64,000 nucleotides of DNA from Candidatus Rokuibacteriota bacterium (GCA_003220265.1 QHRW01000110.1:30395-94394); one strand, 5' to 3'; positions 15,966 to 46,145 are shown, counted from the stretch's first letter. Made by a program: numbers and translations. The notes: generated from the letters alone by a model not told the origin.

Positions 15966-17473
15966 CACCTGACCAGGGCCACGGCGGCCTTGCTCTCCAC
16001 CTGGGCGAGGAGCGCGGCGATCGTGGCTTCGGTCTTGCCCGTGAACACGCTCGGGTACACGCCGATCCACACGATGAAGACGAGCACGGGCACCAGCACC
16101 GCCCACTCGCGCGGGGTGAGATCGCTGAGGCGGCGGTTCTCCTCGTGCGCGATCTCGCCGAAGGCGACGCGCTGGTACATCCAGAGGAGATAGACGGCGG
16201 CGAAGATGATGCCGGTGGTGGCGACGGCCGCCAGCACGCCGCTCACCTGGAAGGCGCCCACCAGCACCAGGAACTCGCCGACGAACCCGTTGAGCCCGGG
16301 CAGGCCCACCGAGGACAGGGTCACCACCAGGAACATCGCGGAGAAGGCCGGGACCACCTTCCACAGGCCACCGAAATCGGCGATGAGCCGCGTGTGGCGG
16401 CGCTCGTAGATCATGCCGACCATGAGGAACAGCGCGCCCGTGGACAGCCCGTGGTTGATCATCTGGATCACCCCGCCCACCACGCCCTGCTGGTTCAGCG
16501 TGAAGAGGCCGAGCATGACGAAGCCCAGGTGGCTCACGCTCGAGTAGGCCACCAGCTTCTTGAGGTCGGGCTGCACCGTCGAGACGAAGGCGCCGTAGAC
16601 GATGCCGATCACGGCCAGCGCGAAGACGAGCGGCGCGAACGCCACGCTGGCGTCGGGGAACAGCGGCAGGCAGAAGCGCAGGAAGCCGTACGTCCCCATC
16701 TTCAGCAGCACGCCGGCCAGGATCACCGAGCCCGCGGTGGGCGCCTCCACGTGCGCGTCGGGCAGCCAGGTGTGGAACGGAAACAGCGGCACCTTGATGG
16801 CGAAGGCCAGCGCGAAGGCCAGGAACATCAGGCTCTGGCCCGCGCCGGGCGGCATCACCCAGCGCACCAGGGTGGTGAGGTCGAACGTGTAGATGCCGGT
16901 GGCCGCGCCGTGCTGATAGTAGAGGGCGAGGATGGCCACCAGCATCAGGGCCGAGCCCACCATCGTGTACAGCACGAACTTGACCGCGGCGTAGATGCGG
17001 TTGCCCCCGCCCCACACGCCGATGACCAGGTACATCGGGATCAGCATCGCCTCCCAGAAGACGAAGAAGAGGAAGAGGTCGAGGCTCACGAAGACCCCGA
17101 GCATCCCCGTCTCCAGCAGCAGCATCGTGATGACGAACTCCTTCGTGCGGTCCTCGATGGCGTGCCACGCGGAGGCGAGCGCGAGCGGCGTGAGGAAGGT
17201 CGTCAGCAGGACCAGCAGGAGGCTGATGCCGTCGATGCCCACGTGATAGCCGGCGCCCAGCGAGGGCAGCCAGCGGTGCAGCTCCTCGAACTGCATGTCG
17301 GCGCTGTCGCCGTCGAAGCGGAACCACAGCGGCAGCGAGACGGCCAGCGTGAGCAGCGTGACACCCAGGCCGGCCGCGCGGTGGGCCTCGACCAGGCGGC
17401 GCGGCACCGCTGTCAGCGCGAGCGCGCCGAGCGCCGGCAGGAACGTGACTGCGGTGAGGAGCCCGATGCTCAT
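15965..17473 (-). CDS. nuoM: NADH-quinone oxidoreductase subunit M
   Basis: NuoM/ND4 family similarity (WLPDAHVEAPTAGSVILAG). The ATG overlaps the nuoL stop (ATGA). Confidence 0.9.
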   Translation of the reverse strand: MSIGLLTAVTFLPALGALALTAVPRRLVEAHRAAGLGVTLLTLAVSLPLWFRFDGDSADMQFEELHRWLPSLGAGYHVGIDGISLLLVLLTTFLTPLALASAWHAIEDRTKEFVITMLLLETGMLGVFVSLDLFLFFVFWEAMLIPMYLVIGVWGGGNRIYAAVKFVLYTMVGSALMLVAILALYYQHGAATGIYTFDLTTLVRWVMPPGAGQSLMFLAFALAFAIKVPLFPFHTWLPDAHVEAPTAGSVILAGVLLKMGTYGFLRFCLPLFPDASVAFAPLVFALAVIGIVYGAFVSTVQPDLKKLVAYSSVSHLGFVMLGLFTLNQQGVVGGVIQMINHGLSTGALFLMVGMIYERRHTRLIADFGGLWKVVPAFSAMFLVVTLSSVGLPGLNGFVGEFLVLVGAFQVSGVLAAVATTGIIFAAVYLLWMYQRVAFGEIAHEENRRLSDLTPREWAVLVPVLVFIVWIGVYPSVFTGKTEATIAALLAQVESKAAVALVR

Positions 17474-19326
17474 CGGGCCAGGAAGAACGCGACCACGACC
17501 ACGGCCCCCGCCAGCATCGTCAGCGCGTAGTTGACGACGTAGCCGGTCTGCAGCCGGCGCAGGCCCGCCCCCCACGCGCTCACGGCCCGCCCCAGCCCGT
17601 TGACGATGCCGTCGATCACGCCGACGTCGAACACCTGGGCCAGCGCCACCGACAGCACGTAGATCGGCTGCACGATGAGGCGGTCGTAGATCCAGTCGAC
17701 GTACCAGGCGTTGAGCAGGAGGGCGTGCACCCAGGTGCGCGGCTGCCCGATCGCCTCGGGCTTCACCGCGCTCTGCCGGTACATGTAGAAGGCCAGCAGA
17801 CCGCCGGCGCCGAAGACGACGAGCGAGAGCAGCACCACCACGCTCGCGTGCTCGCCCTCGTGCGGATGGAACACGGAGGCCAGCAGGTGCGCGAAGCGGC
17901 TGCCGTCCAGCGGCAACCCGAGCGCGAAGCCCGCCACCACCGTCAGCACCGAGAGCATCAGCAACGGCCCCGTCATCACCCACGGCGACTCGTGCGCCTG
18001 CTGCAGGACGTCCCGGGGCATGCGCGGCGCCCCGCTGAAGGCCAGGAACAGCAGGCGGAAGGTGTAAAAGGCCGTCATGAAGGCGCCGGCCAGCAACAGC
18101 GTGAAGATCCCCAGGTGCTCGGTGCCGAGCGCCGCGCCCAGGATCTCGTCCTTGGAGAAGAAGCCCGCCAGCAGCGGCGCGCCGGCCAGCCCGAGGCCGC
18201 CGATCCACATCGTCGTGGCCGTGATCGGCATCTTGGAGGCGAGGCCGCCCATCTTGCGCAAGTCCTGCTCGCCGTGCAGGCCGTGGATGACGCTGCCGGC
18301 GCCGAGGAAGAGCAGCGCCTTGAAGAAGGCGTGCGTCACCAGGTGGAAGATGCCCGCCACGTAGGCGCCCACGCCGACGGCGGCGAACATGTAGCCGAGC
18401 TGGCTGATGGTGGAGTAGGCCAGCACGCGCTTGATGTCGGTCTGCACGAGGCCGATGGTGGCCGCGAACACCGCGGTGGCGGTGCCGACCCAGGCCACCA
18501 CCTCCAGCGCCGAGCCGGAGCGCTCGAACAGCGCGTGGCTGCGCGCGACCATGTAGACGCCCGCCGTCACCATGGTGGCGGCGTGAATCAGCGCGGAGAC
18601 CGGCGTGGGGCCTTCCATCGCGTCGGGCAGCCAGGTGTGGAGAGGGAGCTGCGCCGACTTGCCGCAGGCGCCCATGAACAGCAGCAGCGCGATCCCCGTG
18701 GCCGTGGCCGGCGACAGCGTCGCCGCGCCCTTGAACACGGCGGCGTAGTCGAGCGTGCCGAGCTCCGTCCACAGCCACATGACGCCCAGCCCGAAACCGA
18801 AGTCGCCCACGCGGTTGACGATGAACGCCTTCTTGCCCGCGTTGGCCGCCGAGTCACGCGTGTACCAGAACCCGATCAAGAGGTAGGAGCAGAGGCCGAC
18901 GGCTTCCCAGAACACGTAGAGGAGGAGGAAGTTGCCGGCCAGCACCAGCATCGTCATCGAGAACACGAAGAGATTGAGGTACGCGAAGAAGCGCGCGTAG
19001 CCCGGGTCGCCGTGCATGTAGCCGACGGAGTAGAGGTGGATGAGGAACCCGACGCCGGTGACGACCAGCAGCATGACCGCGCTGAGGTTGTCCACGTAGG
19101 CGGTGATGCCGGTCTCGAAGTCGCCGGCCACGATCCACGCGCCCAGCGTCGTGGTGAACGGCGCGCCCGACCACACGCGCGCGGCCACGGCGCACGCGAA
19201 CAGGAACGAGGCGCCCAGCGCCGGCACGGCGATCCAGTGAGCCCGATGGCCGGTCGAGCGGCCGAAGAAGATGTTGGTGAGGGCGCCGGCGAGGGGGAAG
19301 GCTGGAATCAGCCAGACGGTGGACAC
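17470..19326 (-). CDS. nuoL: NADH-quinone oxidoreductase subunit L
   Basis: NuoL/ND5 family similarity (WLPDAMEGPTPVSALIHAATMVTAG). 618 aa with a long C-terminal extension. GTG start. Confidence 0.9.
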   Translation of the reverse strand: MSTVWLIPAFPLAGALTNIFFGRSTGHRAHWIAVPALGASFLFACAVAARVWSGAPFTTTLGAWIVAGDFETGITAYVDNLSAVMLLVVTGVGFLIHLYSVGYMHGDPGYARFFAYLNLFVFSMTMLVLAGNFLLLYVFWEAVGLCSYLLIGFWYTRDSAANAGKKAFIVNRVGDFGFGLGVMWLWTELGTLDYAAVFKGAATLSPATATGIALLLFMGACGKSAQLPLHTWLPDAMEGPTPVSALIHAATMVTAGVYMVARSHALFERSGSALEVVAWVGTATAVFAATIGLVQTDIKRVLAYSTISQLGYMFAAVGVGAYVAGIFHLVTHAFFKALLFLGAGSVIHGLHGEQDLRKMGGLASKMPITATTMWIGGLGLAGAPLLAGFFSKDEILGAALGTEHLGIFTLLLAGAFMTAFYTFRLLFLAFSGAPRMPRDVLQQAHESPWVMTGPLLMLSVLTVVAGFALGLPLDGSRFAHLLASVFHPHEGEHASVVVLLSLVVFGAGGLLAFYMYRQSAVKPEAIGQPRTWVHALLLNAWYVDWIYDRLIVQPIYVLSVALAQVFDVGVIDGIVNGLGRAVSAWGAGLRRLQTGYVVNYALTMLAGAVVVVAFFLAR

Positions 19327-21595: not shown

Positions 21596-22765
21596 ATGAC
21601 GAGGGCCGCCGCCCTTTCGGAATTCGGCGGTATGCGTCTTGCTCCCCAGCGGCTTGACCGACCTCTCGGGGAAACGTGGATGTCAATCGGATCGCTGGTG
21701 CTCGCCGTCCTCTGCGCCGCGGGGGCGGGCTTGCTCTGGCGACGGCGCGCCGACGATCCGCCGACCGACTGGCCCCTGCGGGCCGCCAGAACTATCGGTC
21801 CCATCCAAGGCGAGCCCGCCGGCCCCGCCTCGCCACGCTTCTCGGTCATCGTGCCCACCTATAACCGGGGCCGCGTCCTGATGGAGGCGATCGAGAGCGT
21901 GCTGGCCCAGCGGGCCGGCGACTTCGAGCTCATCGTGGTGGACGACGGCTCGATCGACGACACCGGGGAGCGCCTGAGGCGGATCCACGACCGCCGGCTG
22001 CGCCGCCTGGGTCTGCCGCACCGCGGCGTGGCGGCGGCGCGCAACGCCGGGATCGCCGCCAGCTCCGGGGCGCTGGTGTCGTTTCTCGACTCCGACGACC
22101 TCTGGAAGCCGGACAAGCTCGAGCGCGAGGCGGACTTCCTGGCCCGCCACCCGGGAGTCGGGGCGGTCTTCAGCGACCTCGAAAAGCACGACGGCCCCCG
22201 CTTCGCACCGTCCTTCATGCGGACGACGGAGGTCTTCTCGCCGCGGCTGCGCGAGGGCGGGCCGGCCGAGATGGTGCTGGGCGCCCGAGAGATGTACCTC
22301 TGGCTGCTCCAGGAGGCCATCGTCAAGACGCCGGCGCTCACGGTGCGCCGCCGGCTGCTCGAGTCGGTGGGCGGATTCGACGTGCGCTGGCGCAGCTCCG
22401 AAGACTGGGAGCTCCTGCTCCGGCTGGCCCAGGCGACGCCGTTCGGCTACATCGATCGCCCCCTGGCGGTCATCCGCGTCTCGCCCGATTCGCTCCACCG
22501 CGTCGAGCAGGCGCGCGGCGACCGGCTCATGCTGCAACTCCTTGCAGCCTACCGCCGGGCCGCCGGCGACCGAGAGGTTCGCGCGGCAGCGCGCCGGGGA
22601 ATCTTCAACCGTGCGCGACACCTGTCGTGGCACCACCTCGACGCGGGCCGCCGGGGGGCGGCGGCCGCCGCCTGCTTGCGCTGGGGACTGGCGCTGCCGA
22701 GCTCCGGGCTCTTGCTGCGCGCCGCCGCCGGCCTGGTGCGGCCCTCCTCCCGGCGCGCGGCGTGA
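21596..22765 (+). CDS. family-2 glycosyltransferase
   Basis: The GT-A signatures FSVIVPTYNR and DDGSxD are present, with a DxD-like region. The N-terminal start could instead be the internal MSIGSLVLAV (TM helix). Confidence 0.75.
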   Translation: MTRAAALSEFGGMRLAPQRLDRPLGETWMSIGSLVLAVLCAAGAGLLWRRRADDPPTDWPLRAARTIGPIQGEPAGPASPRFSVIVPTYNRGRVLMEAIESVLAQRAGDFELIVVDDGSIDDTGERLRRIHDRRLRRLGLPHRGVAAARNAGIAASSGALVSFLDSDDLWKPDKLEREADFLARHPGVGAVFSDLEKHDGPRFAPSFMRTTEVFSPRLREGGPAEMVLGAREMYLWLLQEAIVKTPALTVRRRLLESVGGFDVRWRSSEDWELLLRLAQATPFGYIDRPLAVIRVSPDSLHRVEQARGDRLMLQLLAAYRRAAGDREVRAAARRGIFNRARHLSWHHLDAGRRGAAAAACLRWGLALPSSGLLLRAAAGLVRPSSRRAA

Positions 22766-23610
22766 GCCTGCTGTCACGGCTGCTGCGCCTCGCCTACGGG
22801 CGGTACGTGCCGGAGCCCGTCCGCAACGCGCTCCGCCTGAATCTCGTGCTCGTGCAGCGCGACCGCGAGCCGATCCGCACGGCCCCGCCCACCGGACGCA
22901 TCGTCGTCCTGGCCCCGCACATGGACGACGAGGTCTTCGGCTGCGGCGGCACCCTGGCGAAGACGGCGGCGGCCGGTGGCGACGTCACCGTGATCTTCAT
23001 GACGGACGGCCGCAAGGGCTACGCCGCCGATGCCGTGCGCGGCCGCTCCGGCGCCGAGATCGAGGCCTGGGAAGCCCGGTTGAGTGAAACCCGCAAGGAG
23101 GAGTCTCGCCGCGCGGCCAAGTTCCTCGGCTATCGCGACGCCCTGTACCTGGATCTGCCCGACGGCGCGCTCGCCTGCACGCCCGGCGCCGTCGGCCGTC
23201 TCGCCAGCGCGCTACGGACCCTGCAACCCGACGCGATCTTCCTGCCGTTCCTGACCGACATCCACCACGATCACTGGCTGACCAACGTGGTGTTCGCGGA
23301 AGCGGCGGCGGCCGCCGCGCTGCGCTCCGACATCACGTGCTGGGGCTACGAGGTCTGGATCCCGGCGCCGGCCAATGTCGTCGTCGACGTCACCGACGTG
23401 TTCGACCGGAAGGAGCGCGCCATGCGGGAGTTCGCCAGCCAGAGCGAGTACGAGTACCAGCGCGCGATGGTGGCGCTGAACACGTACCGCTCGCTCTTCA
23501 CGGCGCGCGGCGCCGGCTTCGCCGAGGGGTTCTACACCGCCTCGCTCCCGATCTACCTCGGCCTCTATCGCGCCGCCGCCGTGGGTCACCGCCGCGCGGC
23601 CGAGCGTTGA
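22762..23610 (+). CDS. PIG-L/LmbE-family N-acetylglucosaminyl deacetylase
   Basis: The hallmark motif LAPHMDDEVFGCGGT is present. The GTG start overlaps the GT2 stop (GTGA). Confidence 0.8.
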   Translation: MSLLSRLLRLAYGRYVPEPVRNALRLNLVLVQRDREPIRTAPPTGRIVVLAPHMDDEVFGCGGTLAKTAAAGGDVTVIFMTDGRKGYAADAVRGRSGAEIEAWEARLSETRKEESRRAAKFLGYRDALYLDLPDGALACTPGAVGRLASALRTLQPDAIFLPFLTDIHHDHWLTNVVFAEAAAAAALRSDITCWGYEVWIPAPANVVVDVTDVFDRKERAMREFASQSEYEYQRAMVALNTYRSLFTARGAGFAEGFYTASLPIYLGLYRAAAVGHRRAAER

Positions 23611-23642
23611 CCCTGACCGCCCGGCGCTGTTACGGTCGGCTC

Positions 23643-24449
23643 ATGCGAAATCTCTGCTCCACCTGTGTGCTCGCGCTGCTGCTGCTCGTGACGCCGGCGG
23701 TCGAGGCCGGCTGGATCATCGTCGACGAGGGCGGTCATCAGACCTCGCTCTCGCGCGGACGAATGAAGATGTCGCCCAAGGAAGCGCAGGGCGTGTCGAT
23801 GGTGCTCGACATCGGCCGCGCGCGCATGTGGGTGGCCGACGCCGGGCGCCGCACCTACTGGGAGGGCACCGTCGAGGAGTATTGCCAGGCGATGCGCACC
23901 ACCATGGCCGGCGCCATGGCCGACATGGAAAAGCAGATGGCCGAGTCGATGAAGGACATGCCGCCGGCCCAGCGCGAGCAGATGCAGCAGATGATGAAGA
24001 ACATGCGCGGCGGCGGCGCGCCGGCAGGGCCGCCGCCGGCCGTCACGATCGAGAAGACCGGCGAGACGGAGAAGATCGCCGGCCTCACGGCGCGCAAGTT
24101 CCGCGTGCTCAGCAACGGCAAGCTCTACGAGGAGATGTGGCTGACGACGGACCCGGCGCTCCTGCGCGAGCTGGAGATGACGAAGGCCCCCGACACGTTC
24201 GGCCGGATGTCAGGCTGCATGGCGGCCATGGCCGGCGGGCCGCGGCCCGAGGCGAGCGACGAGTTTCGCAAGCTCTACGCCGAGGGCTGGCCGCTCAAGG
24301 TCATCTATCACGGCGAGACCGGCGGGGGCCCCGCCGGCACCACGGTCACGAAGGTCGAGCAGCGCAACATCTCCGAAGCGGAGTTCACGCCGCCGACGGG
24401 CTACAAGAGCGCGCCGCTCAGCGAGGTGTTCGGAACCCAGCGCCGCTGA
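23643..24449 (+). CDS. secreted hypothetical protein with Met-rich segment
   Basis: Signal peptide MRNLCSTCVLALLLLVTPAVEA. A Met-rich stretch (MAGAMADMEKQMAESMKDMPPAQREQMQQMMKNM) is reminiscent of periplasmic Cu/metal-binding proteins. No confident family assignment. Confidence 0.6.
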   Translation: MRNLCSTCVLALLLLVTPAVEAGWIIVDEGGHQTSLSRGRMKMSPKEAQGVSMVLDIGRARMWVADAGRRTYWEGTVEEYCQAMRTTMAGAMADMEKQMAESMKDMPPAQREQMQQMMKNMRGGGAPAGPPPAVTIEKTGETEKIAGLTARKFRVLSNGKLYEEMWLTTDPALLRELEMTKAPDTFGRMSGCMAAMAGGPRPEASDEFRKLYAEGWPLKVIYHGETGGGPAGTTVTKVEQRNISEAEFTPPTGYKSAPLSEVFGTQRR

Positions 24450-25719
24450 CGGCGCTCGCCAGCGCGCGCGGCGGCACGTAGTCGCCGAAGACGCCGAGCA
24501 GCGCGTCGAGCGCGCCCGGCCGGCGCGCGAGCGCGCGGCACGTCCAGTTCGCCAGCCGGCGGTGGGCGATCACCGTTTGCAGCGCGCGCGTCACCCGCTG
24601 CTTGCCGGCGAAGGCGGCGCGGCGCGCCCGCTCGTAGGCGGCCAGCGCCGCCGCCGACACGTCGCCCGCGCGCAGCGCGCGTACGACGGTCTCCGCCGCC
24701 AGCTCGGCCGACCGCAGCGCGGTGAACACCCCCTCGCCCGTGAACGGATCGTAGAAGCCGGCCGCGTCGCCCACCAGCAGCACGCCGCCGGCCCGCGGCG
24801 GCGTCACGCGGTGGGCCAGCGGGCCCAGCGCGCGCACCGGCGCCACGCGCTCGGCGCCCGCCAGGCGGCGCGCGAGGTGCGGAAGCTGGCGCACGCGCGC
24901 GGTCATGAAATCCTCGAGCCGCCGGCTCCACGGCGCCGCGTGGGCGAGCGGCACCACCACCGAGAGGTTCACGCGCTCGGGGCCGAGCGGGTTCAGGATC
25001 GCGTAGTCCGGCGGGTCCACGAAGATCTCGCCGAGCTCGCGGCACTCGGGCACGCCGCGCACGTACGTGGCCAGCGCCAGGCGCTGGAGCGCGTGCGGGC
25101 TGCGGCAGCCCAGTCGCTGCGCCACGATCGAGTGGCGGCCATCGGCGCCGACCACGACCGGCGCGCGGACCTCCAGCGGGCGCTGCTCGCGGTCCTCGGC
25201 GCGCACGCCCACCACCTGGCCGCCCTCGACGAGGACGTCCGTCACGCGCGTCTCCTCGCGCAGGTCCAGCGGCAGGCTGCGCACGCGATCCACCAGCGCG
25301 CCGTCGAGCGTCTCGCGCGCCACGCCCATCGCGTGCTGGCGGTACGGACGGAACTCGCCGAACGGCCGGTAGCGGCCGACCACGCTGGTGCCGTCGGGCG
25401 CGGTGATACGCATGCCGGCCAGCGCCGCCGCCCCGGCCGCGTCCAGCGCCTTGAGCACGCCGAGCCGGTCGAGCACGCGCGCGGCCTCGGGGCTCAGGTA
25501 CTCGCCGCAGATCTTTTCGCGCGGCAGCGCGGCGCGGTCGAGGACGACCACGTCGAGCCCGTGCTCTGCGAGCAGGATCGCGATCGCAGCGCCGGCGGGC
25601 CCGGCGCCGACGACGACCACGTCCGCATGACGGGGGGCCCCGACATGGCCCCCCGGACCCCCCAATGCTCGGAGCGCCCCGGGGAACCCGTGGCGCTCCT
25701 CGGTCACCCGGCCGCTCAT
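24418..25719 (-). CDS. FAD-dependent oxidoreductase (geranylgeranyl-reductase/flavin monooxygenase-like)
   Basis: The motifs DVVVVGAGPAG, GADGRHS and GDAAGF are present. The N-terminal 30 aa overlap a palindromic repeat element, so the true start may be the downstream GTG at the VVVVG motif. Confidence 0.8.
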   Translation of the reverse strand: MSGRVTEERHGFPGALRALGGPGGHVGAPRHADVVVVGAGPAGAAIAILLAEHGLDVVVLDRAALPREKICGEYLSPEAARVLDRLGVLKALDAAGAAALAGMRITAPDGTSVVGRYRPFGEFRPYRQHAMGVARETLDGALVDRVRSLPLDLREETRVTDVLVEGGQVVGVRAEDREQRPLEVRAPVVVGADGRHSIVAQRLGCRSPHALQRLALATYVRGVPECRELGEIFVDPPDYAILNPLGPERVNLSVVVPLAHAAPWSRRLEDFMTARVRQLPHLARRLAGAERVAPVRALGPLAHRVTPPRAGGVLLVGDAAGFYDPFTGEGVFTALRSAELAAETVVRALRAGDVSAAALAAYERARRAAFAGKQRVTRALQTVIAHRRLANWTCRALARRPGALDALLGVFGDYVPPRALASAVSGAGFRTPR

Positions 25720-26411
25720 CGGATCTCCGCCACCAGGCGGCCGAGCCCCGGGTAGCGCGTGATGACGGCACGGCGGCCGGCCTTCTCGGCGAGCACGGCC
25801 AGCTCGCCGGGCGACCAGGCGCGACGGACGGACACGGGACCGTCGTGGCGCGACACGGGGTGCAAACGCAGGACGCGCGTGGCCAGCCACACGAGCGCGA
25901 GCGTCAGCGGCGTGCGCAGCAGGTCGTTCACCAGCACGAGCGGGGCGGCCGCCGCCATCTGCGCCAGGCACGCCACCACGGCGTCGCGGTCGAGGTGGTG
26001 CAGCGTCAGCGCGCTCACGGCCACCTCCGCGCTGCACTCGCGCAGCGGCAGCGCGGCGGCGTCGGCCTGCACGAGGACGATCTCGGGATAGGCCGACGTG
26101 CGGCGGCGGGCCACCGCGAGCGTGGCGGCGTCGCTGTCGACGACGACGACGCGCACGGGCCGCCCGGCCCGCCGCGCCCAGCGCACGACGTTGACGGCGA
26201 AATCGCCGCGCCCGCCGCCGACGTCCACCACACGCAGGCGCGCCCCGCGCGGCAGCGCGGCCGCGACGCGGCGCAGCCGCCGCAGCGTGAGGGCGTAGCC
26301 GCCGAACCACGCGTTGAGGAAGTCGAGATCGTCGAGCGTGGCGTCCAGCTCGGCCGGCGCCAGCGGCCCGTCCATCCGCTCCCGCGCGTCCGCATCGCGC
26401 TGAATCACCAT
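25716..26411 (-). CDS. class I SAM-dependent methyltransferase
   Basis: SAM-binding motif I VVDVGGGRGDF. The stop overlaps the oxidoreductase ATG (ATGA). Confidence 0.8.
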   Translation of the reverse strand: MVIQRDADARERMDGPLAPAELDATLDDLDFLNAWFGGYALTLRRLRRVAAALPRGARLRVVDVGGGRGDFAVNVVRWARRAGRPVRVVVVDSDAATLAVARRRTSAYPEIVLVQADAAALPLRECSAEVAVSALTLHHLDRDAVVACLAQMAAAAPLVLVNDLLRTPLTLALVWLATRVLRLHPVSRHDGPVSVRRAWSPGELAVLAEKAGRRAVITRYPGLGRLVAEIR

Positions 26412-26417
26412 CTCAGG

Positions 26418-26488
26418 CTCGCCTCGCCTGCGGCTGCGGCTCGCACGACTCTTCGCAGACTCGCCTCGCCTGCGGCTGCGGCTCGCAC
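26418..26488. repeat. perfect 29-bp direct repeat (ctcgcctcgcctgcggctgcggctcgcac) x2, 13-bp spacer, in the type III PKS to methyltransferase intergenic region
   Basis: Read directly from the sequence at 26418-26446 and 26460-26488. The second copy ends at the PKS stop codon. Confidence 0.7.
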
Positions 26489-27513
26489 TACCATCTCAGC
26501 AGCGCCCCCTCGGCCGCGAAGCCGGGGCCGAGGCCGACGAGCAGGCCCCACTCGCCGGGCACGGGCGTTTCGTGCTGGAGCATGTGCTCGAGCACGAACA
26601 GGATGGTGGCGGACGACATGTTGCCGAACTCCTTGAGCACGGCGCGCGCGTGGGTCAGCGCGGACTCGTCCACGCCCAGCAGCACGCGCGCTCGATCGAG
26701 CACGCGGCGGCCGGCGGAGTGCAAGACGAAGTAGCGGATGTCCTCGCGCTTGAGCCCCTGCGCGTCCATGAGCGCGCGCGCCATCTCGGCCATCATGCCG
26801 GCACCGATACGGCGGACGTCCTTGGACAGGGTCACGCGCGGACGGCCGCCCGGGTACTCGAAGCCCATGGCGTCGAGGTGCTCGGACCGGAAGCGCGTGC
26901 GGTGCTCGAGAATGGCCGGCCCGTGGCCGTCGCCCGCCAGCGCGAGCGCGCCGGCGCCGTCGGCGAAGATCGCGTGAGCGACCGCGCTCTCCAGCCGGTC
27001 GTCGAGGAAGTACGCGGCCGAGCAGATCTCCACGGCCACCACCAGCGCGCGGTGGCCGGGAAACGCGCGCACGTGGTTCCACGCCTGTTGCAGCGCGACG
27101 ACGGCCGAGGCGCACCCGGTGTCGCCCACGTGCACGCGCTGCACGTCGGGCCGGCAGCCGAGGCGCGCGATGAGATGGGCATCCAGGCTCGGCGTCATGC
27201 GGCCCGTGCACGTGGTGGTGGCGAGGAAATCGACGGCGTCCACGTCCCAGCCCGCGCGGGCCAGCGCCGCGCGCGCGGCCCGCTCGCCCAGCTCGAGGGC
27301 CCCGCGCCGGAAGCGCGCGCTCAGCTCGTCGACGGACTCGTCCGGATGAAACGTTTCGCGGTCGATGAACAGATGCCGGCCCGCGATGTCGCTGGCCTCG
27401 AAGAAGCCCCGCCGGCGCGTGTCGTCGTAGCCGGCCATCCGCAGCAGCTCCGACTGCGTGAAGCGCTGGGCGGGCGTGGCGGTCGCGACGGCCGCGATCC
27501 GGGGCAGCTCCAT
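26488..27513 (-). CDS. type III polyketide synthase (chalcone/stilbene synthase family)
   Basis: The Cys-His-Asn triad context is present (TTTCTGRMTPS, VLHSAGRRVLD, KEFGNMSSATILFVL). Strong AAGGAGA ribosome-binding site. 341 aa. Confidence 0.85.
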   Translation of the reverse strand: MELPRIAAVATATPAQRFTQSELLRMAGYDDTRRRGFFEASDIAGRHLFIDRETFHPDESVDELSARFRRGALELGERAARAALARAGWDVDAVDFLATTTCTGRMTPSLDAHLIARLGCRPDVQRVHVGDTGCASAVVALQQAWNHVRAFPGHRALVVAVEICSAAYFLDDRLESAVAHAIFADGAGALALAGDGHGPAILEHRTRFRSEHLDAMGFEYPGGRPRVTLSKDVRRIGAGMMAEMARALMDAQGLKREDIRYFVLHSAGRRVLDRARVLLGVDESALTHARAVLKEFGNMSSATILFVLEHMLQHETPVPGEWGLLVGLGPGFAAEGALLRW

Positions 27514-27578
27514 CAGGTCTCCTTGGTCGGCTTCGCGTAAGATGAGCGCACTTCGAGGATACTGCGAGGGTCCCACCC

Positions 27579-28106
27579 ATGCCACTGTTCAGCTTCGAGG
27601 GCAAACATCCGCGCGTGCACCCCTCCGCGTTCATCGCGCCGACGGCCGTCGTCGTCGGCGACGTGACGATCGAGGAGCGCGCCTCCGTCTGGTACAACGC
27701 CGTCGTGCGCGCGGACTTCCAGCCGATCGTCGTGCGGCGCGGCGCCAACGTGCAGGACTGCGCGGTCGTGCACGTCAACGGCGCCCAGGGCGTCGAGGTG
27801 GGGCCGGGCGCCACCATCGGCCACAACTGCACGGTGCACGCGGCGTGGCTGGGCGAGGAATGCCTTGTCGGGAACGGCTCCACCGTGCTCGACGGCGCCC
27901 GCATCGGCGTGCGCGCGATGGTGGCGGGCGGCGCGCTGGTGACGCCGGGCACGGAGGTGCCCGACGGCATGCTGGCCATGGGCGCGCCCGCGAAGGTGCG
28001 CGGGCCGCTCGCGGGCACGCCGGCCGAGCGCTGGGTGCAGGTGAACCCGGAGGCGTACCAGGCCCTGGCGCAGCGTCACAAGGCCGGCATCGCCCTGATC
28101 GGGTAG
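27579..28106 (+). CDS. gamma-class carbonic anhydrase family protein (hexapeptide-repeat, YrdA/PaaY-like)
   Basis: Left-handed beta-helix hexapeptide repeats. Typical gamma-CA N-terminus MPLFSFEGKHPRVHPSAFIAPTAVVVGDVTIEE. Confidence 0.85.
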   Translation: MPLFSFEGKHPRVHPSAFIAPTAVVVGDVTIEERASVWYNAVVRADFQPIVVRRGANVQDCAVVHVNGAQGVEVGPGATIGHNCTVHAAWLGEECLVGNGSTVLDGARIGVRAMVAGGALVTPGTEVPDGMLAMGAPAKVRGPLAGTPAERWVQVNPEAYQALAQRHKAGIALIG

Positions 28107-28110
28107 CGCC

Positions 28111-28893
28111 TCAGGCGCCGCGGAATTTCGCGGGCCGCTTCTCCTTGAACGCCGCCACGCCCTCGGCGTGATCGGCGGTCTGACGCACGATCGACATGTG
28201 CGAGCTCACGAGGTCCAGATGCGTGCGCAGGTCGAGCTTGAGGCTCTGGTAGACGAGCCGCTTGATCATGCGGATGGGGACCTGCGGGCCGTCGGCGATC
28301 TGGCGGGCCAGCGCGTACGTCTCGTCCTGGAGCTTGGCGTCCGGCACCACGCGCTGCACGATGCCGAGCCGGTGCGCCTCCGGCGCCTCGATGAAGTCCG
28401 CCGTCCACAAGAGCTCGAGCGCCTTGGCCGGGCCGACCAGGCGAGGCAGGAAGAAGGTGTCGCCGTCGCCGGGCACGAGGCCGACGCGCACGTAGCCCGT
28501 GGAGAAGCGCGCGCTCTCGGCGGCGATACGCATGTCGCACATCACGCACATGCCCATGCCGGCTCCGACGGCGAGGCCGTTGACCATGGCGATCACCGGC
28601 TTGTCCATCTGCTCGAGCTGCTTGGGCACGCGGTGCACGCCCTCCCATAGCGAGTTCTTGCCGTCGAGCGCCGTCGGCTCCCCCGAGCGCATGCGGCCCA
28701 CGTCGCCGCCGGAGCAGAAGGCGCGCCCGGCGCCGGTGACGATCACGACGTTGACATTGTCGTCGCGCTGGGCCTCGGCCAGCGACTTTTGCCAGGCGTC
28801 GATCATGTCGCCCGTGAACGCGTTGAGCTTGTCGGGGCGGTTCAGCGTGATGGTCGCGATCTTGTCCTTCACCTCGTAGAGCAGGTCAGCCAT
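28111..28893 (-). CDS. enoyl-CoA hydratase/isomerase family protein
   Basis: Crotonase fold with the oxyanion-hole region AFCSGGD and MVNGLAVGAG. Confidence 0.85.
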   Translation of the reverse strand: MADLLYEVKDKIATITLNRPDKLNAFTGDMIDAWQKSLAEAQRDDNVNVVIVTGAGRAFCSGGDVGRMRSGEPTALDGKNSLWEGVHRVPKQLEQMDKPVIAMVNGLAVGAGMGMCVMCDMRIAAESARFSTGYVRVGLVPGDGDTFFLPRLVGPAKALELLWTADFIEAPEAHRLGIVQRVVPDAKLQDETYALARQIADGPQVPIRMIKRLVYQSLKLDLRTHLDLVSSHMSIVRQTADHAEGVAAFKEKRPAKFRGA

Positions 28894-28903
28894 GGGGTCC
28901 TCG

Positions 28904-30079
28904 TCAGTCTTTCGGCAGGCCGAGCACGCGCTCGCCGAGGATGTTCTTGAGAATCTCCGTCGTGCCGGCACGGATGCCGCTCGCGCGCGCGAGCAGCTCG
29001 TAGAACTGCCACTGGCCCTCGTCGGGCGCCCACGGCCCGCCCGCGACCTGCGAGTACGGCCCGATCACCTGCGTGGCCGTCAGCGCCAGCTCCTGGTCGA
29101 GATGGCTCCAGAAGAGCTTGGACGTCGAGCCCTCCGGTCCCGGCGCGCCGCCTTTCAAGATCTTGGTGAGGCTGCGGTAGCCGTTGAGCTGCAGCGCCTG
29201 CTCGCCGATCCACAGCTCGGCGATCTTCTGGCGGACGACGGGGTCGGTGTTGCGCCCGCGGCTCTGCGTCAGCTTGACCAGGCGCTGGAGCGCGTTACGC
29301 AGCGAGATCGAGCGGATGAAGGTGAGCAGGTCGCGCTCGTAGGCGAGCGTGGTGATGGCGACACCCCAGCCCTCGTTGAGCCTGCCGACCAGGTTCTCCT
29401 TCGGCACCCGCACGTTGTCGAAGAACGTCTCGTTGAACTCGGCCTCGCCGGTGATCTGGCGCAGCGGCCGCACCGTGATGCCGGGCGTCTTCATGTCGAC
29501 GAGCAGGAACGAGATGCCCTTGTGCTTGGCCGCGCTGGGATCGGTGCGCACGAGGAGGAAGCACCAGTCGGCCACGTGGCCCATGCTGGTCCACACCTTC
29601 TGGCCGTTGACTATGAAGGCCTCGCCGTCCAGCACCGCTCTCGTCTGCAAGTTCGCCAGGTCCGATCCTGCATTCGGTTCTGAGAATCCCTGACACCAAA
29701 GCTCTTCCGCGGTCAAAATCTTCTGCAGGTGGCGCGTCTGCTGGGCCGGCGTGCCGTGCTTCATGAGCGTGGGGCCCAGCATCGACACGCCGCCGCGATT
29801 GACGATCTGCGGCGACTCGGCCCGCGCCATCTCCTGGTACAGGATCACCATCTCGGTGATCGGCGCCCCGCGCCCGCCGAACTCGCGGGGCCAGTCCATC
29901 CCGACGTACCCCGCCTCGGCCATCGTCTTCTGCCACGCCCGCAGCCGCCGCACCTCCTCCACATCCGCCCGCGACGCCGCAAACGCCCTCCCCTTCAAAT
30001 CCTCCGGCAGATTGCGCTCCAGCCACGCCCTGACTTCCTTCCGAAACGCCTCTTCGCTCTCTGTGAACTCGAAATTCAT
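28904..30079 (-). CDS. acyl-CoA dehydrogenase
   Basis: ACAD N-terminal, middle and C-terminal domains. Similarity across the full 391 aa. Confidence 0.9.
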   Translation of the reverse strand: MNFEFTESEEAFRKEVRAWLERNLPEDLKGRAFAASRADVEEVRRLRAWQKTMAEAGYVGMDWPREFGGRGAPITEMVILYQEMARAESPQIVNRGGVSMLGPTLMKHGTPAQQTRHLQKILTAEELWCQGFSEPNAGSDLANLQTRAVLDGEAFIVNGQKVWTSMGHVADWCFLLVRTDPSAAKHKGISFLLVDMKTPGITVRPLRQITGEAEFNETFFDNVRVPKENLVGRLNEGWGVAITTLAYERDLLTFIRSISLRNALQRLVKLTQSRGRNTDPVVRQKIAELWIGEQALQLNGYRSLTKILKGGAPGPEGSTSKLFWSHLDQELALTATQVIGPYSQVAGGPWAPDEGQWQFYELLARASGIRAGTTEILKNILGERVLGLPKD

Positions 30080-30172: not shown

Positions 30173-30970
30173 TCAGTACATCACGCATCCACCATCCACC
30201 ATCAGCGCCTGGCCGGTGATGTACCGCGCTTCATCCGACGCGAGGAACACGGCGGCGTTGCCGATGTCCGCCGGCTCCTGCTCGCACTTCATGGGCACGA
30301 TGTCATTCACCCGCTTGTCGAACACCTGGCGCGGCGTCATGCCCTTGAAGGCGGGGTTGGTTTCGGCGATGTGCGCGGCCAGCTTCTGCCAGAAGTCCGT
30401 GTAGAGCACGCCGGGGCAGATCGCGTTCACGGTGATCTTGTGCGCGGCCAGCTCTTTGGCCACCACGCGGGTGAACGTGATGACGCCCTGCTTGGCCACG
30501 CTGTAGGCCGGCATGGTGGGCGCGCTCAGCGGCCCCGCGATGGAGGCGATGTTGATGATGCGGCCGGCCTTGCGCTCGATGAAGTAGGGCGCCACGGTTT
30601 TGCACGTCAGGAACACGGACTTGGTGTTCACGGCGAAGGCGCGATCCCAGTCTTCTTCCGTATTGTTCGTGAACGGCATGCCGGGCGGCGCCGCCATGCC
30701 GGCGTTGTTCACGAGGATGTCGATCTTGCCCAGCGCGTCGCGCGTGCGATCCACCATGACCTTGACGTCGGCGGAGCTGGTGACGTCGGTCTTCATCGCG
30801 AGGACCTTGCGCCCGAGCCCCTTCACCTCGTCGGCGACCTTCTCCGCGTTCAGCACCTGGATGTCGGGGATCGCGATGTCGGCGCCCTCGCGCGCGAGCG
30901 CCAGCACGATGCCGCGCCCGATGCCGCTGCCTCCGCCCGTGACGACGGCAACCTTGCCGGCAAGCCGCAT
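30173..30970 (-). CDS. SDR-family oxidoreductase
   Basis: The Rossmann motif TGGGSGIG, the NNAG motif and the YxxxK catalytic motif are present. GGAG ribosome-binding site. Confidence 0.85.
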   Translation of the reverse strand: MRLAGKVAVVTGGGSGIGRGIVLALAREGADIAIPDIQVLNAEKVADEVKGLGRKVLAMKTDVTSSADVKVMVDRTRDALGKIDILVNNAGMAAPPGMPFTNNTEEDWDRAFAVNTKSVFLTCKTVAPYFIERKAGRIINIASIAGPLSAPTMPAYSVAKQGVITFTRVVAKELAAHKITVNAICPGVLYTDFWQKLAAHIAETNPAFKGMTPRQVFDKRVNDIVPMKCEQEPADIGNAAVFLASDEARYITGQALMVDGGCVMY

Positions 30971-31013
30971 GGGATCTCCTTCCTCTATAATCGGATGCTT
31001 CCGGAGGGTCCCC

Positions 31014-33155
31014 ATGACATCACACCCGCTCAGGAGCCGCAACTGGTTCGGCCGTCAGGACCTCGACGGCTTCGTGCATCGCTCGTGGCTGAAGAGCGAG
31101 GGCTTCAGCGATCACGTCTTCGACGGCCGCCCCGTGATCGGCATCGCCAACTCGTGGTCCGAGCTCACGAACTGCAACGCGCACCTGCGCCAGGTGGCCG
31201 ACGCCGTCAAGCGCGGCGTGTGGTCGGCCGGCGGCTTTCCGCTGGAGTTCCCGACGATCTCGCTCGGCGAAGTCCTGATGAAGCCGACGACCATGATGTT
31301 CCGCAACCTGATGGCGATGGACGTCGAGGAGTGCATCCGCGCCTATCCGCTCGACGCCGTCGTGCTCCTCTCCGGCTGCGACAAGACCACGCCGGCCATG
31401 CTGATGGGGTCGGTGTGGCTGGCGCCGAAGCTGGCGCAGGCATCACGCGGTGACGCGGCGTGGCCGCTGCCGAGCGTCAAGCAACTACAGCAGAAAGAGT
31501 AGTCCGCCCTCGGGGTCGTGACGGCGCGCGAGCCTGATGTTAAACTGCCGCGGGTGGCCCGGACGCCCGGAAGAGGTCGCGGTAATGACGAAGTCGCTCA
31601 CGGGCGTTCGTATCCTGGTCGTCGAGGATGACGATGACAGTCGCTACTTTCTAGAGCATTCCCTGGCCGACGAGGGCGCCACGGTCATCGTGGCCGCCAC
31701 GGCCAAGGACGCCTTGCGCGACGTCACCGGTGCGGAAGTCGTCGTGACGGATCTCGCCATGCCGAACAACGACGGGATCTGGCTTCTGAACGAGATCAAC
31801 GGCCTGTCGCGGCCGGTGCCGGTCATCGTCCTGAGCGGCTATCATGAAAGCCAGCACTCGCAGCTTCGCGCGGCTCCCTTCATCCGCAAACTGCTGAAGC
31901 CGGTCAGCACTCGCGAACTAAGTCGGATCATCCGCGAGGTGCTCCACGGCGTGGTGACGGTGTCGGAGCACGGACGACTCCTTCTGGGATTGCTCAATCC
32001 TTTGGATGGCGGACTCTGCACCAAGTGCGTCGCCGACGCGCTGGAGTGCAGTCCTGAGGAGTCGTTGAAAGCGACGAAGAACCTGATCTCGAACGGTCTC
32101 GCGCTCGCCAAGCAAGACCTCTGCGCGCGGTGCGGGGAGGTGCAGCCGGTCACGCGCCTCCGTCCCTCACGGTAGGTTCCGACCGGCGACCTGGGGGGTG
32201 TGCCTGACGTCTGACTTCGACTAGAGGCGTTCGACAACGCGATCCGCGCGCTGATGGCGATCGGCGGGTCCACAAACGCGGTCATCCACCTCGTGGCCAT
32301 CGCCCGCGAGCCGGTCTTCCACTGGCGCTGTCGCGCTTCGACGAGCTGTCGCGCACGACACCCTTCCTGCTCAACGTGCGCCCGTCCGGCAAGTACCTGA
32401 TGGAGGACTTCTTCTACGCGGGCGGGCTGCCGGTCGTCCTCAAGGCGCTGCTGCCACTGCTGCTGGCCGACAACGTGCGCGACGCGAGCTGCTGGAACGA
32501 CGACGTCATCCGCCCGCTCGAGGTCCCGCTGGCCGCGGAAGGCGGCCTGGCCATCCTGCACGGCAATCTCTGTCTGGGCGGCGCCGTCATCAAGGTGTCG
32601 GCGGCGTCCGGTCATCTGCTCATGCACCGTGGTCGCGCCGTCGTGTTCGAGGACCACGCGGACCTGCACCGCCGCATCGACGATCCCGACCTGCCGATCG
32701 ACGCCTCCTCCGTGCTGGTGCTCAAGCACGTCGGGCCCAAGGGCGCGCCGGGCATGCCGGAGTGGGGCGCCGCGCCGGTGCCGGCCCGCCTGCTGAAGCA
32801 GGGTGTGAAAGACATGGTACGGATCTCCGATGCACGCATGAGCGGAACGTCATACGGCACCGTGGTGCTGCACGTGGCGCCGGAGTCGGCGGTGGGCGGG
32901 CCGCTGGCGCTGGTGCGCGACGGGGACGAGATCGAGCTGAACGTGCCTGCACGAACGCTGACGTTGAATGTGCCGGAGGGCGAGCTCGCGCGCCGGCGGG
33001 CCGCGTGGACGCCGCGCCCGCCGCACTTCACACGCGGCTACGGCAGCCTCTTCCTCGACCACGTGCTGCAGGCCGATGAGGGCTGCGACTTCGACTTCCT
33101 CCGCGGCCGTACCCCCGTTCGCCACGAGGACACTGCCGGCCCGTCGCATAGTTGA
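31014..33155 (+). pseudogene. IlvD/EDD-family dehydratase (sugar-acid dehydratase type) disrupted by an inserted cassette and a frameshift
   Basis: The N-terminal fragment (31014-31410) matches IlvD/EDD up to GCDKTTPAMLMG. The C-terminal homology resumes near 32213 ([31 protein letters not shown]) and needs a +1 frame change near 32300 to continue ([14 protein letters not shown]...[11 protein letters not shown]...GCDFDFL). About 135 aa of the middle are missing and are replaced by roughly 800 bp of lower-GC DNA. Confidence 0.7.
31585..32175 (+). CDS. single-domain response regulator with C-terminal Cys-rich (CxxC...CxxC zinc-ribbon-like) domain
   Basis: Receiver-domain motifs are present (VVEDDDD acidic pocket, phospho-acceptor Asp in VVVTDLAMP, conserved Lys in IRKLLKP). 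The C-terminal 70 aa carry CTKC and CARC pairs. GC content is visibly lower than the flanks. The gene sits inside the disrupted dehydratase gene. Confidence 0.7.
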   Translation: MTKSLTGVRILVVEDDDDSRYFLEHSLADEGATVIVAATAKDALRDVTGAEVVVTDLAMPNNDGIWLLNEINGLSRPVPVIVLSGYHESQHSQLRAAPFIRKLLKPVSTRELSRIIREVLHGVVTVSEHGRLLLGLLNPLDGGLCTKCVADALECSPEESLKATKNLISNGLALAKQDLCARCGEVQPVTRLRPSR

Positions 33156-45697: not shown

Positions 45698-45737
45698 GCA
45701 CACGAGCCTGGCGTGGTCCTAGGCCAAAGCAGATGCC

Positions 45738-46145
45738 GTGGATTCCCGAATGTCGCGAGCCGTGATGGTCGCCGTCCTCGCCGCTGGCGCATGCGGCCCA
45801 TCCTTCCCTTCGCCGGGGCGCACTGCCAGTCAGCCGTTGCCGCCCCGCGGCGCGCAGCCCGGCCCTGGCCCGGCGCGCGGCGTCTTTCCGCCGAACGCCA
45901 CCCGTGTGATTGCGACCGTGCAGAAGGTCAGCGGCGACACGCTCACGCTCGAGATCCTCGAGGCCCGCCAGGCACGCCCCGACGTGGCCATCGGCCCGGC
46001 GGTGGGCACCATCGAAGCCGTGTCGCGCGGCCTGCTCGACCCTGCGCTGGCCGGCCGGCGCATCGAGGCCGTCATTTCGATCGTCGGCGACACGCTGGCG
46101 AGCCGGTGGCTGATTTCCGAGATACGGCCCCTCCCCGACCGATGA
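45738..46145 (+). CDS. small hypothetical lipoprotein translationally coupled to the giant protein gene
   Basis: Lipobox AVLAAGAC. The stop overlaps the ATG of the downstream gene (ATGA). Confidence 0.55.
   Translation: MDSRMSRAVMVAVLAAGACGPSFPSPGRTASQPLPPRGAQPGPGPARGVFPPNATRVIATVQKVSGDTLTLEILEARQARPDVAIGPAVGTIEAVSRGLLDPALAGRRIEAVISIVGDTLASRWLISEIRPLPDR

Follow-up and report, generated by a model that had tools for sequence, protein, structure and literature searches.

What is made by a type III polyketide synthase (PKS) whose gene is followed, on the same strand, by genes for a class I S-adenosylmethionine (SAM)-dependent methyltransferase (MT) and a flavin adenine dinucleotide (FAD)-dependent oxidoreductase, and to which known system does such a trio belong? 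The question arises in Candidatus Rokuibacteriota bacterium, in a stretch of 64,000 nucleotides (GCA_003220265.1 QHRW01000110.1:30395-94394; hereafter the window), for which an earlier note drew a parallel with the srsABC phenolic lipid system of Streptomyces griseus. We consider it rather probable, judging from sequence, that the trio is a single operon whose product is a type III polyketide modified by tailoring enzymes, and most likely a methylated and oxygenated phenolic lipid of the membrane. The locus is an uncharacterised relative of known phenolic-lipid operons in which a type III PKS is combined with a methyltransferase and a flavoenzyme, so that the type of system is already known. 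All coordinates are positions in the whole window, and genes were taken from the list of open reading frames (ORFs) together with start-codon inspection:

26488-27513, minus strand: type III PKS, 341 aa (Pfam and NCBIfam matches, alignments, start codon and ribosome-binding site)
25716-26411, minus strand: class I SAM-dependent MT, 231 aa (PRK06202-like family)
24418-25719, minus strand: FAD-dependent oxidoreductase (the flavoprotein below), 433 aa (geranylgeranyl reductase (GGR)/halogenase-like group)

The trio occupies 3.1 kb of a window with ~71% G+C. Its co-directional order, PKS, then MT, then flavoprotein, had been described in the earlier note and is confirmed by the ORF list and domain assignments, which place all three genes on the minus strand. 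The overlap that the note saw between the second and third genes is likewise real: the TGA stop of the MT and the ATG start of the flavoprotein share the 4 nt ATGA at 25716-25719, and the same overlap is present in one relative (L002) and in the planctomycete operon of Polystyrenella longa (L083). The ATG start of the PKS has AAGGAGA seven bases upstream, and its length of 341 aa is that of almost all close homologues.

To see how far this arrangement extends, we scanned genomes (one per species) with a 12-sequence PKS alignment, which gave 80 loci, and placed the window proteins in related loci by tblastn. The best loci all come from Candidatus Rokubacteria/Methylomirabilota, with 66-95% PKS identity within Rokubacteria, followed by NC10/Methylomirabilis (54-62%), Bryobacterales (53-54%), and Terriglobia and others (38-46%). 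Sorted by PKS identity, the neighbouring genes, including a divergent gamma-carbonic anhydrase (gamma-CA) gene treated further below, are distributed as follows:

PKS identity at least 66%: MT directly downstream in 38/38, flavoprotein downstream in 29/29, divergent gamma-CA gene in 39/41
PKS identity 52-66%: MT directly downstream in 21/22, flavoprotein downstream in 14/17, divergent gamma-CA gene in 0/19
PKS identity below 52%: MT directly downstream in 0/16, flavoprotein downstream in 0/14, divergent gamma-CA gene in 0/16

At a PKS identity of at least 52%, the PKS, MT and flavoprotein genes thus keep the same order and strand in 59/60 related loci for the MT and 43/46 for the flavoprotein, in a set that covers Rokubacteria, NC10/Methylomirabilis and Bryobacterales and hence at least two phyla. 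Co-conservation in related genomes was a check proposed in the earlier note, and the three genes are indeed kept together; the table therefore defines PKS, MT and flavoprotein as the conserved core. In five NC10-type loci (L048, L050, L051, L060 and L071) a gene for a secreted, possibly lipoprotein, YceI-like protein lies between MT and flavoprotein (1985-2632 in L050); the role of YceI is lipid binding. That three unrelated genes have come to lie side by side fortuitously would find support only in the fact that genomes commonly contain methyltransferase and flavoprotein genes; the order and strand kept in 59/60 and 43/46 informative loci, the 4-nt overlap, and the occurrence of the same trio in Planctomycetota and cyanobacteria (PMC10896814, PMC8086630) all oppose it. 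We take chance adjacency to be refuted by the conserved order across related loci, with a negligible residual probability.

The PKS has the four expected Pfam domains (PF00195, PF02797, PF08392 and PF08541, all above cut-offs), the catalytic residues C134, H265 and N298, the gatekeeper F183 as the equivalent of F215 in CHS, and a GLGPGF loop. A 36-sequence alignment shows no variation at H265 or N298 and conservation of at least 90% at C134; the Cys-His-Asn triad, whose absence the earlier note had set as grounds for abandoning its proposal, is present. The best solved homologue is Pks11 of M. tuberculosis (PDB 4jao; 155 bits, E 2e-44, end-to-end alignment), followed by Ectocarpus PKS1, PKS18 and RppA/THNS. 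Pks11 resembles the window PKS in length (353 versus 341 aa), in its C-terminal LLRW and in the E(I/L)CSxxY active-site motif; it differs in having only ~35% identity, in its place in another clade, and in belonging to a type I/type III PKS cluster that lacks the MT and flavoprotein pair (PMC5916927).

We placed the PKS in a neighbour-joining tree built from residues 79-338 of 140 sequences (those of the loci, representatives at 50% identity, and six references). The Methylomirabilota and Bryobacterales PKSs form a clade of their own, with DpgA, Pks11, RppA, PKS18/EsPKS1 and the Hid-type PKS elsewhere. Core identity to the window PKS is 38.8% for DpgA, 34.7% for Pks11, 33.5% for EsPKS1, 32.0% for the Hid type, 29.2% for RppA and 28.5% for PKS18. 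As a lineage of its own, with 29-39% identity to DpgA, Pks11, RppA, PKS18 and a Hid-type PKS, the PKS does not allow its product to be assigned by orthology; the tree speaks to the separateness of the PKS, not to its function. Soil metagenomes contain an abundance of homologues with 78-95% identity, of which the few that are named belong to Rokuibacteriota or Binatia, and many close homologues are named alkylresorcinol/alkylpyrone synthase by JGI. A search of plasmids with the PKS brought up nothing but type III PKSs that are either of the DpgA type or unrelated, at 27-35% identity.

The nearness of DpgA bears on an alternative in which the PKS takes malonyl-CoA or another short starter, as DpgA and PhlD do, and the product is a small dihydroxyphenyl- or phloroglucinol-type aromatic, methylated and oxygenated but not a lipid. 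No characterised reference comes closer over the core than DpgA, and Streptomyces DpgA proteins are 35% identical to the window PKS; the two share the motifs VExCSAAYxxDD (in the window, VEICSAAYFLDD) and HS(G/A)G (HSAG), and DpgA is also the best NCBIfam model, aligned end to end. The score, however, is 236 bits against an equivalog cut-off of 425, and DpgA lies in a different clade of the tree. The obligatory dpgB/C/D genes and the aminotransferase of a real dpg cluster are absent from the conserved core, while the sole nearby ECH gene belongs to a separate SDR-ACAD-ECH unit that is missing from NC10 and Bryobacterales relatives. Against a non-lipid product stand also the YceI-like lipid binder inside the NC10 versions of the operon and the partner MT, whose family acts on alkylresorcinols (PMC10896814). 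A DpgA pathway proper was rejected on the sub-threshold score and the missing dpgB/C/D, which set the locus apart from a real dpg cluster (L084), and we hold a short-starter product in general to be unlikely.

The MT is the gene that ties the window most specifically to a described system. Its Pfam matches (PF13649, PF08241 and PF01209) are solely to class I Rossmann MT families, with the SAM motif VDVGGGRG at residue 62 and the family motifs LHHL, VNDLxR and DGPVSVRRA, and we found neither a hydrophobic segment outside the Rossmann core nor a membrane-spanning profile. Its best NCBIfam model is NF004851 (PRK06202), at 137 bits and below the curated 243-bit cut-off; Mtr of Gimesia maris has the same top model, at 218 bits and likewise below 243, with the next family at ~31 bits. 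The G. maris reference sequences were stitched by hand from supplement DNA of PMC10896814 damaged by optical character recognition; the authentic P. longa operon later replaced them as the planctomycete reference. Aligned over 224 aa, its full length, the window MT shares 31% identity with its P. longa counterpart (E 2e-16), and a hidden Markov model (HMM) of the window MT orthologues recognises the planctomycetal protein at E 7e-54. The best solved structure reaches just 23 bits, and a tblastn search with the MT against plasmids gave no match. On these profile and alignment scores, the window MT belongs to the same specific family as the planctomycetal/hid-type MTs, among them the alkylresorcinol-methylating Mtr of G. 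maris.

That family belongs to operons described in two other groups. The hidABC genes of picocyanobacteria make hierridin B in Cyanobium, according to the account of Costa et al. 2019 given in PMC10896814, and 47 hierridin-like clusters are known from cyanobacteria, some with the PKS first (hidC, hidA, hidB; PMC8086630). Among Planctomycetota, an operon of MT, flavoprotein and PKS holds 58 of the 96 type III PKS genes, and planctomycetal PKSs yielded C15/C17 alkylresorcinols when expressed in C. glutamicum; with the MT and flavoprotein of G. maris expressed alongside, these alkylresorcinols gained one methyl group, probably on carbon (PMC10896814). Like these operons, the window packs a type III PKS, a class I SAM MT and an FAD oxidoreductase tightly together, with NF004851 as the top model of the MT and TIGR02032 as that of the flavoprotein; it has the 4-nt overlap of MT and flavoprotein genes seen in P. 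longa and the PKS-first order of some cyanobacterial hid clusters. Its PKS, in contrast, lies outside the HidC clade: it has 28% identity to the P. longa PKS at full length and 32% in the core, stands apart from it in the tree, and has GDTGCASA and HSAG where the Hid type has GFMGCHGA and HPGG. Unlike the hid type, too, are the Methylomirabilota host, the gamma-CA neighbour of Rokubacteria and the YceI-like insert of the NC10 versions. The closest known system, judged by these predicted families, is therefore hidABC and the planctomycetal operon rather than srsABC, the MT being the sole specifically related component, and the window is best classed as a partial member of the hid type, matching it in MT family and not in PKS clade, with a flavoprotein that has the same top model but stands no nearer to Fdo than to halogenases.

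The parallel drawn in the earlier note with srsABC, to which pkqABC of Mycobacterium smegmatis may be added, stands as one of gene order (PKS, methyltransferase, oxygenase) and of functional logic, since in those systems a resorcinol is methylated and hydroxylated to a quinone (PMC9927152, PMC6669644), much as we propose here. It is an analogy only. SrsB is an isoprenylcysteine-carboxyl-methyltransferase-type enzyme (PMC6669644), whereas the window MT has a class I Rossmann fold and no membrane-spanning profile; because an SrsB-type methyltransferase is missing, the window does not belong to the srs family. The earlier note had itself seen that the MT is of class I and the flavoprotein GGR-like, and was correct in this; it took these traits as a sign that the product may differ from known phenolic lipids, whereas they are what defines the described hidABC/planctomycetal type. 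With gene calls, families and catalytic residues all borne out, every factual element of that note is right, and it is its comparisons that needed adjusting. Literature searches returned no relevant paper on type III PKSs of Methylomirabilis or Methylomirabilota, and a paper on biosynthesis in Rokubacteria does not mention type III PKS.

The third core protein is the least easily assigned. The flavoprotein matches the Pfam family FAD_binding_3, PF01494, at 111 bits, and its best model, the GGR family TIGR02032, scores 156.8 bits, a marginal miss of the 158.8 cut-off. It carries GAGPAG (residue 38), KICGEY (69), GADGRHS (191), YAILNP (239) and GDAAGFYDPFTGEG (317), and the patterns GxGxxG, CG(E), GADGxxS and GDAAGxxDPFTGEG are conserved in a 48-sequence alignment of the window protein and its orthologues. 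It is 28% identical to Fdo of P. longa (HMM E 2e-45), which itself has a GGR as its best solved match. From this motif conservation and these scores it follows that the window protein is a GGR/halogenase-like group-A flavoenzyme.

A relationship to GGRs would suit a pathway in which the PKS yields an alkylpyrone or an unsaturated alkyl compound and the flavoprotein reduces a side-chain double bond rather than hydroxylating the ring. Consistent with this are TIGR02032 as best model, only 2 bits under its cut-off, the GGR-type CG(E) and GDAAGxxxPxTGEG motifs, the deposition of Pks11, the nearest solved PKS, as an alpha-pyrone synthesis enzyme, and the lack of a hydroxylated product from the G. 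maris flavoprotein (PMC10896814). In sequence similarity to solved proteins the resemblance weakens, the archaeal GGR scoring 53 bits, below halogenases and monooxygenases; QhpG, a true monooxygenase of the same superfamily, reaches 116 bits against the window protein. GGRs hold their isoprenoid with an aromatic motif, YxWxFP. In the window protein this motif is degenerate and replaced by a conserved YxIxNP. Hierridin B, furthermore, needs its ring hydroxylated, and the flavoprotein is the sole enzyme of the homologous operon that could do so (PMC10896814, PMC8086630). We give the reductase pathway a low probability, about the same as that of a short-starter product.

Far less probable still is a role of the flavoprotein as a flavin-dependent halogenase, with chlorination or bromination of the polyketide ring, which would match the chlorinated hierridin C. 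Its five best solved homologues are indeed CmlS, halogenase 8zop, ChlB4, and Bmp2 and its triple mutant (E 1e-22 to 3e-24). Yet the motif WxWxIP, present in 4/4 aligned halogenases, is absent, the aligned position being occupied by YAILNP, which is conserved in the 48 orthologues; Ala or Leu stands at the positions aligned with CmlS lysines, one of which we take from our own reading of the numbering to be catalytic; and no flavin reductase partner lies nearby. With its motifs missing, the halogenase reading is disfavoured. Ring hydroxylation, by analogy with the described systems, is most likely the reaction of the flavoprotein and the most economical reading of it.

The best-supported reading of the operon is a type III PKS product that is methylated and oxygenated by two dedicated enzymes. 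In the pathway that we propose, the PKS would condense an acyl starter, presumably a long-chain fatty acyl-CoA or acyl-ACP (ACP, acyl carrier protein), with malonyl-CoA units on Cys134 and cyclise the chain to a resorcinol or pyrone ring; the class I MT would place a methyl group on the ring, by O- or C-methylation; and the flavoprotein, by analogy with HidB and SrsC, would hydroxylate the ring to give a methoxy- or methyl-alkyl-hydroquinone or quinone. Starter length, ring type, methylation site and flavoprotein reaction are all inferred. For the lipid character of the product we rely on the homologous MT, which acts on alkylresorcinols, on the YceI-like lipid-binding gene that sits inside the NC10 versions of the operon, on the long-chain specificity of Pks11 as the nearest solved PKS, and on the source annotations as alkylresorcinol/alkylpyrone synthase.

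Several observations weigh against this pathway. The window PKS falls in no characterised clade, and the tree that places it is without bootstrap support and without SrsA, ArsB, PhlD, BpsA or HidC; the local motifs VExCSAAYxxDD and HS(A/G)G are shared with a malonyl-starter enzyme, DpgA; the conserved core includes no acyl-activating enzyme or ACP; and the flavoprotein scores 73 bits to the Hid-type Fdo as against 84-89 bits to flavin halogenases. The only experiment on this operon type, which used the G. maris flavoprotein, saw no detectable change of product from that enzyme (PMC10896814).

Three further features lie within or beside the core:

26412-26487, minus strand: spacer between PKS and MT, 76 nt, with two exact 28-nt direct repeats (sequence and repeat search)
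27514-27578, no strand assigned: divergent intergenic region between the PKS and gamma-CA genes, 65 nt (sequence and comparison of 41 regions)
27579-28106, plus strand: gamma-CA-family hexapeptide protein gene, 175 aa (family models, zinc-ligand alignment)

The gap of 65 bp to a divergent gamma-CA gene, as given in the earlier note, is exact, running from 27514 to 27578 between the two start codons. The encoded protein has hexapeptide repeats (PF00132; best model NF050158), and its zinc-ligand histidines H65, H82 and H87 align with those of Pyrococcus Cap (PDB 1v3w, E 3e-42). Family and divergent position were thus rightly recognised in that note; the synteny, in turn, is restricted by lineage and lies outside the conserved core, the gene standing beside the PKS in 39/41 Rokubacteria loci and in neither the 19 NC10/Bryobacterales loci nor the 16 loci below 52% PKS identity. 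The gamma-CA is probably a syntenic and possibly co-regulated neighbour in Rokubacteria, not a pathway enzyme. As a separate matter, gamma-CA proteins serve as complex I subunits in plants and protists, as PDB matches of the window protein indicate. A gene for a NuoL/MrpA-type antiporter-like subunit lies at 17470-19326 (minus strand), ~5 kb from the operon, and two relatives (L001 and L002) have, in synteny, three Proton_antipo_M genes past an M23 peptidase gene, consistent with nuoL/M/N.

Within the divergent region, comparison of 41 intergenic regions reveals two blocks conserved in ~25 Rokubacteria loci, reading in PKS orientation CCCTCGCAGTAT(C/G)CTCGA ... CATCTTACGCGA. Candidate -10 elements are TATCCT for the PKS and TAAGAT for the gamma-CA gene, and a second subclade has a canonical TAGACA-N17-TATCCT directly before the PKS start. 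A consensus scan of 24000-28400 found neither a sigma-70 promoter nor an intrinsic terminator, and Rfam found no RNA family in 23000-29500. The conserved non-coding blocks are probably overlapping divergent promoters. The spacer repeats, at 26418-26445 and 26460-26487, have the 28-nt sequence TGCGAGCCGCAGCCGCAGGCGAGGCGAG and are bounded by duplicated CTGAGATGGT; a repeat search gave two matches where none is expected. One relative (L003) lacks the spacer, its PKS gene ending and its MT gene beginning in a shared GTGA; in another (L001) the repeat is present once, in diverged form; and a third (L004) has a near-identical copy at 852-879, upstream of the PKS start. The repeat looks like a small duplicating GC-rich intergenic element.

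Apart from the gamma-CA gene, synteny within Rokubacteria alone extends to the SDR-ACAD-ECH unit upstream and an RraA-like gene downstream, which in many relatives directly follows the flavoprotein gene. In the window these two are separated by genes for a GT2 glycosyltransferase, a PIG-L deacetylase and a secreted DUF4412 protein (21596-24449, plus strand). DUF4412 is otherwise found only in the three closest relatives, and PIG-L and GT2 only in the window. SDR-ACAD-ECH, RraA-like, DUF4412, PIG-L and GT2 were all rejected as operon parts, being present solely in close relatives or in the window.

Some loci do not follow the taxonomy of the rest. Five operon loci at 54-68% PKS identity (L029, L035, L040, L051 and L053) come from bins labelled Acidoferrum, Verrucomicrobiia, Dormiibacterota, Patescibacteria and Actinomycetota, and three of them (L029, L035 and L040) also carry the gamma-CA neighbour typical of Rokubacteria; the odd labels point to mis-binning, or possibly to lateral transfer. 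Acidobacteriota PKS relatives at 38-46% identity, which have neither MT nor flavoprotein, form a different pattern: in 10/16 loci the gene directly downstream encodes a small secreted cupredoxin-like protein (7123-7500 in L064, 7147-7512 in L067; 9 further loci, within L068-L082), and in an eleventh locus (L082) it lies ~5 kb downstream of the PKS. The distant PKS and the cupredoxin-like gene look like a separate conserved gene pair. A predicted protein of 4818 aa (P0121) contains 12 separate type III PKS-like stretches; gene calling may have merged a tandem array, or the protein may truly have many domains.

Elsewhere in the window, an ilvD/edd-type dehydratase gene at 30600-33155 (plus strand) seems broken, one ORF covering profile positions 1-101 of the N-domain and another positions 271-303 and the C-domain. 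Between the pieces a response-regulator receiver gene (31537-32175) lies within a stretch of lower G+C (0.65). One relative (L002) has an intact dehydratase gene (577 aa), and an insertion, a replacement or an assembly chimera could account for the break. At 45713-53170 (plus strand) stands an exceptionally long ORF (2485 aa) whose codon composition resembles that of coding sequence.

The operon described here belongs to an unstudied lineage that is conserved across Methylomirabilota and some Acidobacteriota. It is a small and concrete target for heterologous expression, and its product is a candidate lipid biomarker for abundant uncultured soil bacteria. Phenolic lipids of such operons harden cysts, alter antibiotic tolerance and carry electrons in hypoxia in other bacteria. 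A bolder proposal, which we regard as speculative and somewhat less probable even than the short-starter and reductase alternatives above, is that the operon, rather than being a sporadic cluster for a secondary metabolite, makes a polyketide hydroquinone/quinone or a phenolic membrane lipid as part of core physiology, inherited vertically throughout the phylum Methylomirabilota, also in the nitrite-dependent methanotroph Methylomirabilis. If this were true, the product could, for example, be an alternative carrier of respiratory electrons, as polyketide quinones are in mycobacteria, and the gamma-CA of Rokubacteria would recapture CO2 released in the decarboxylative condensations.

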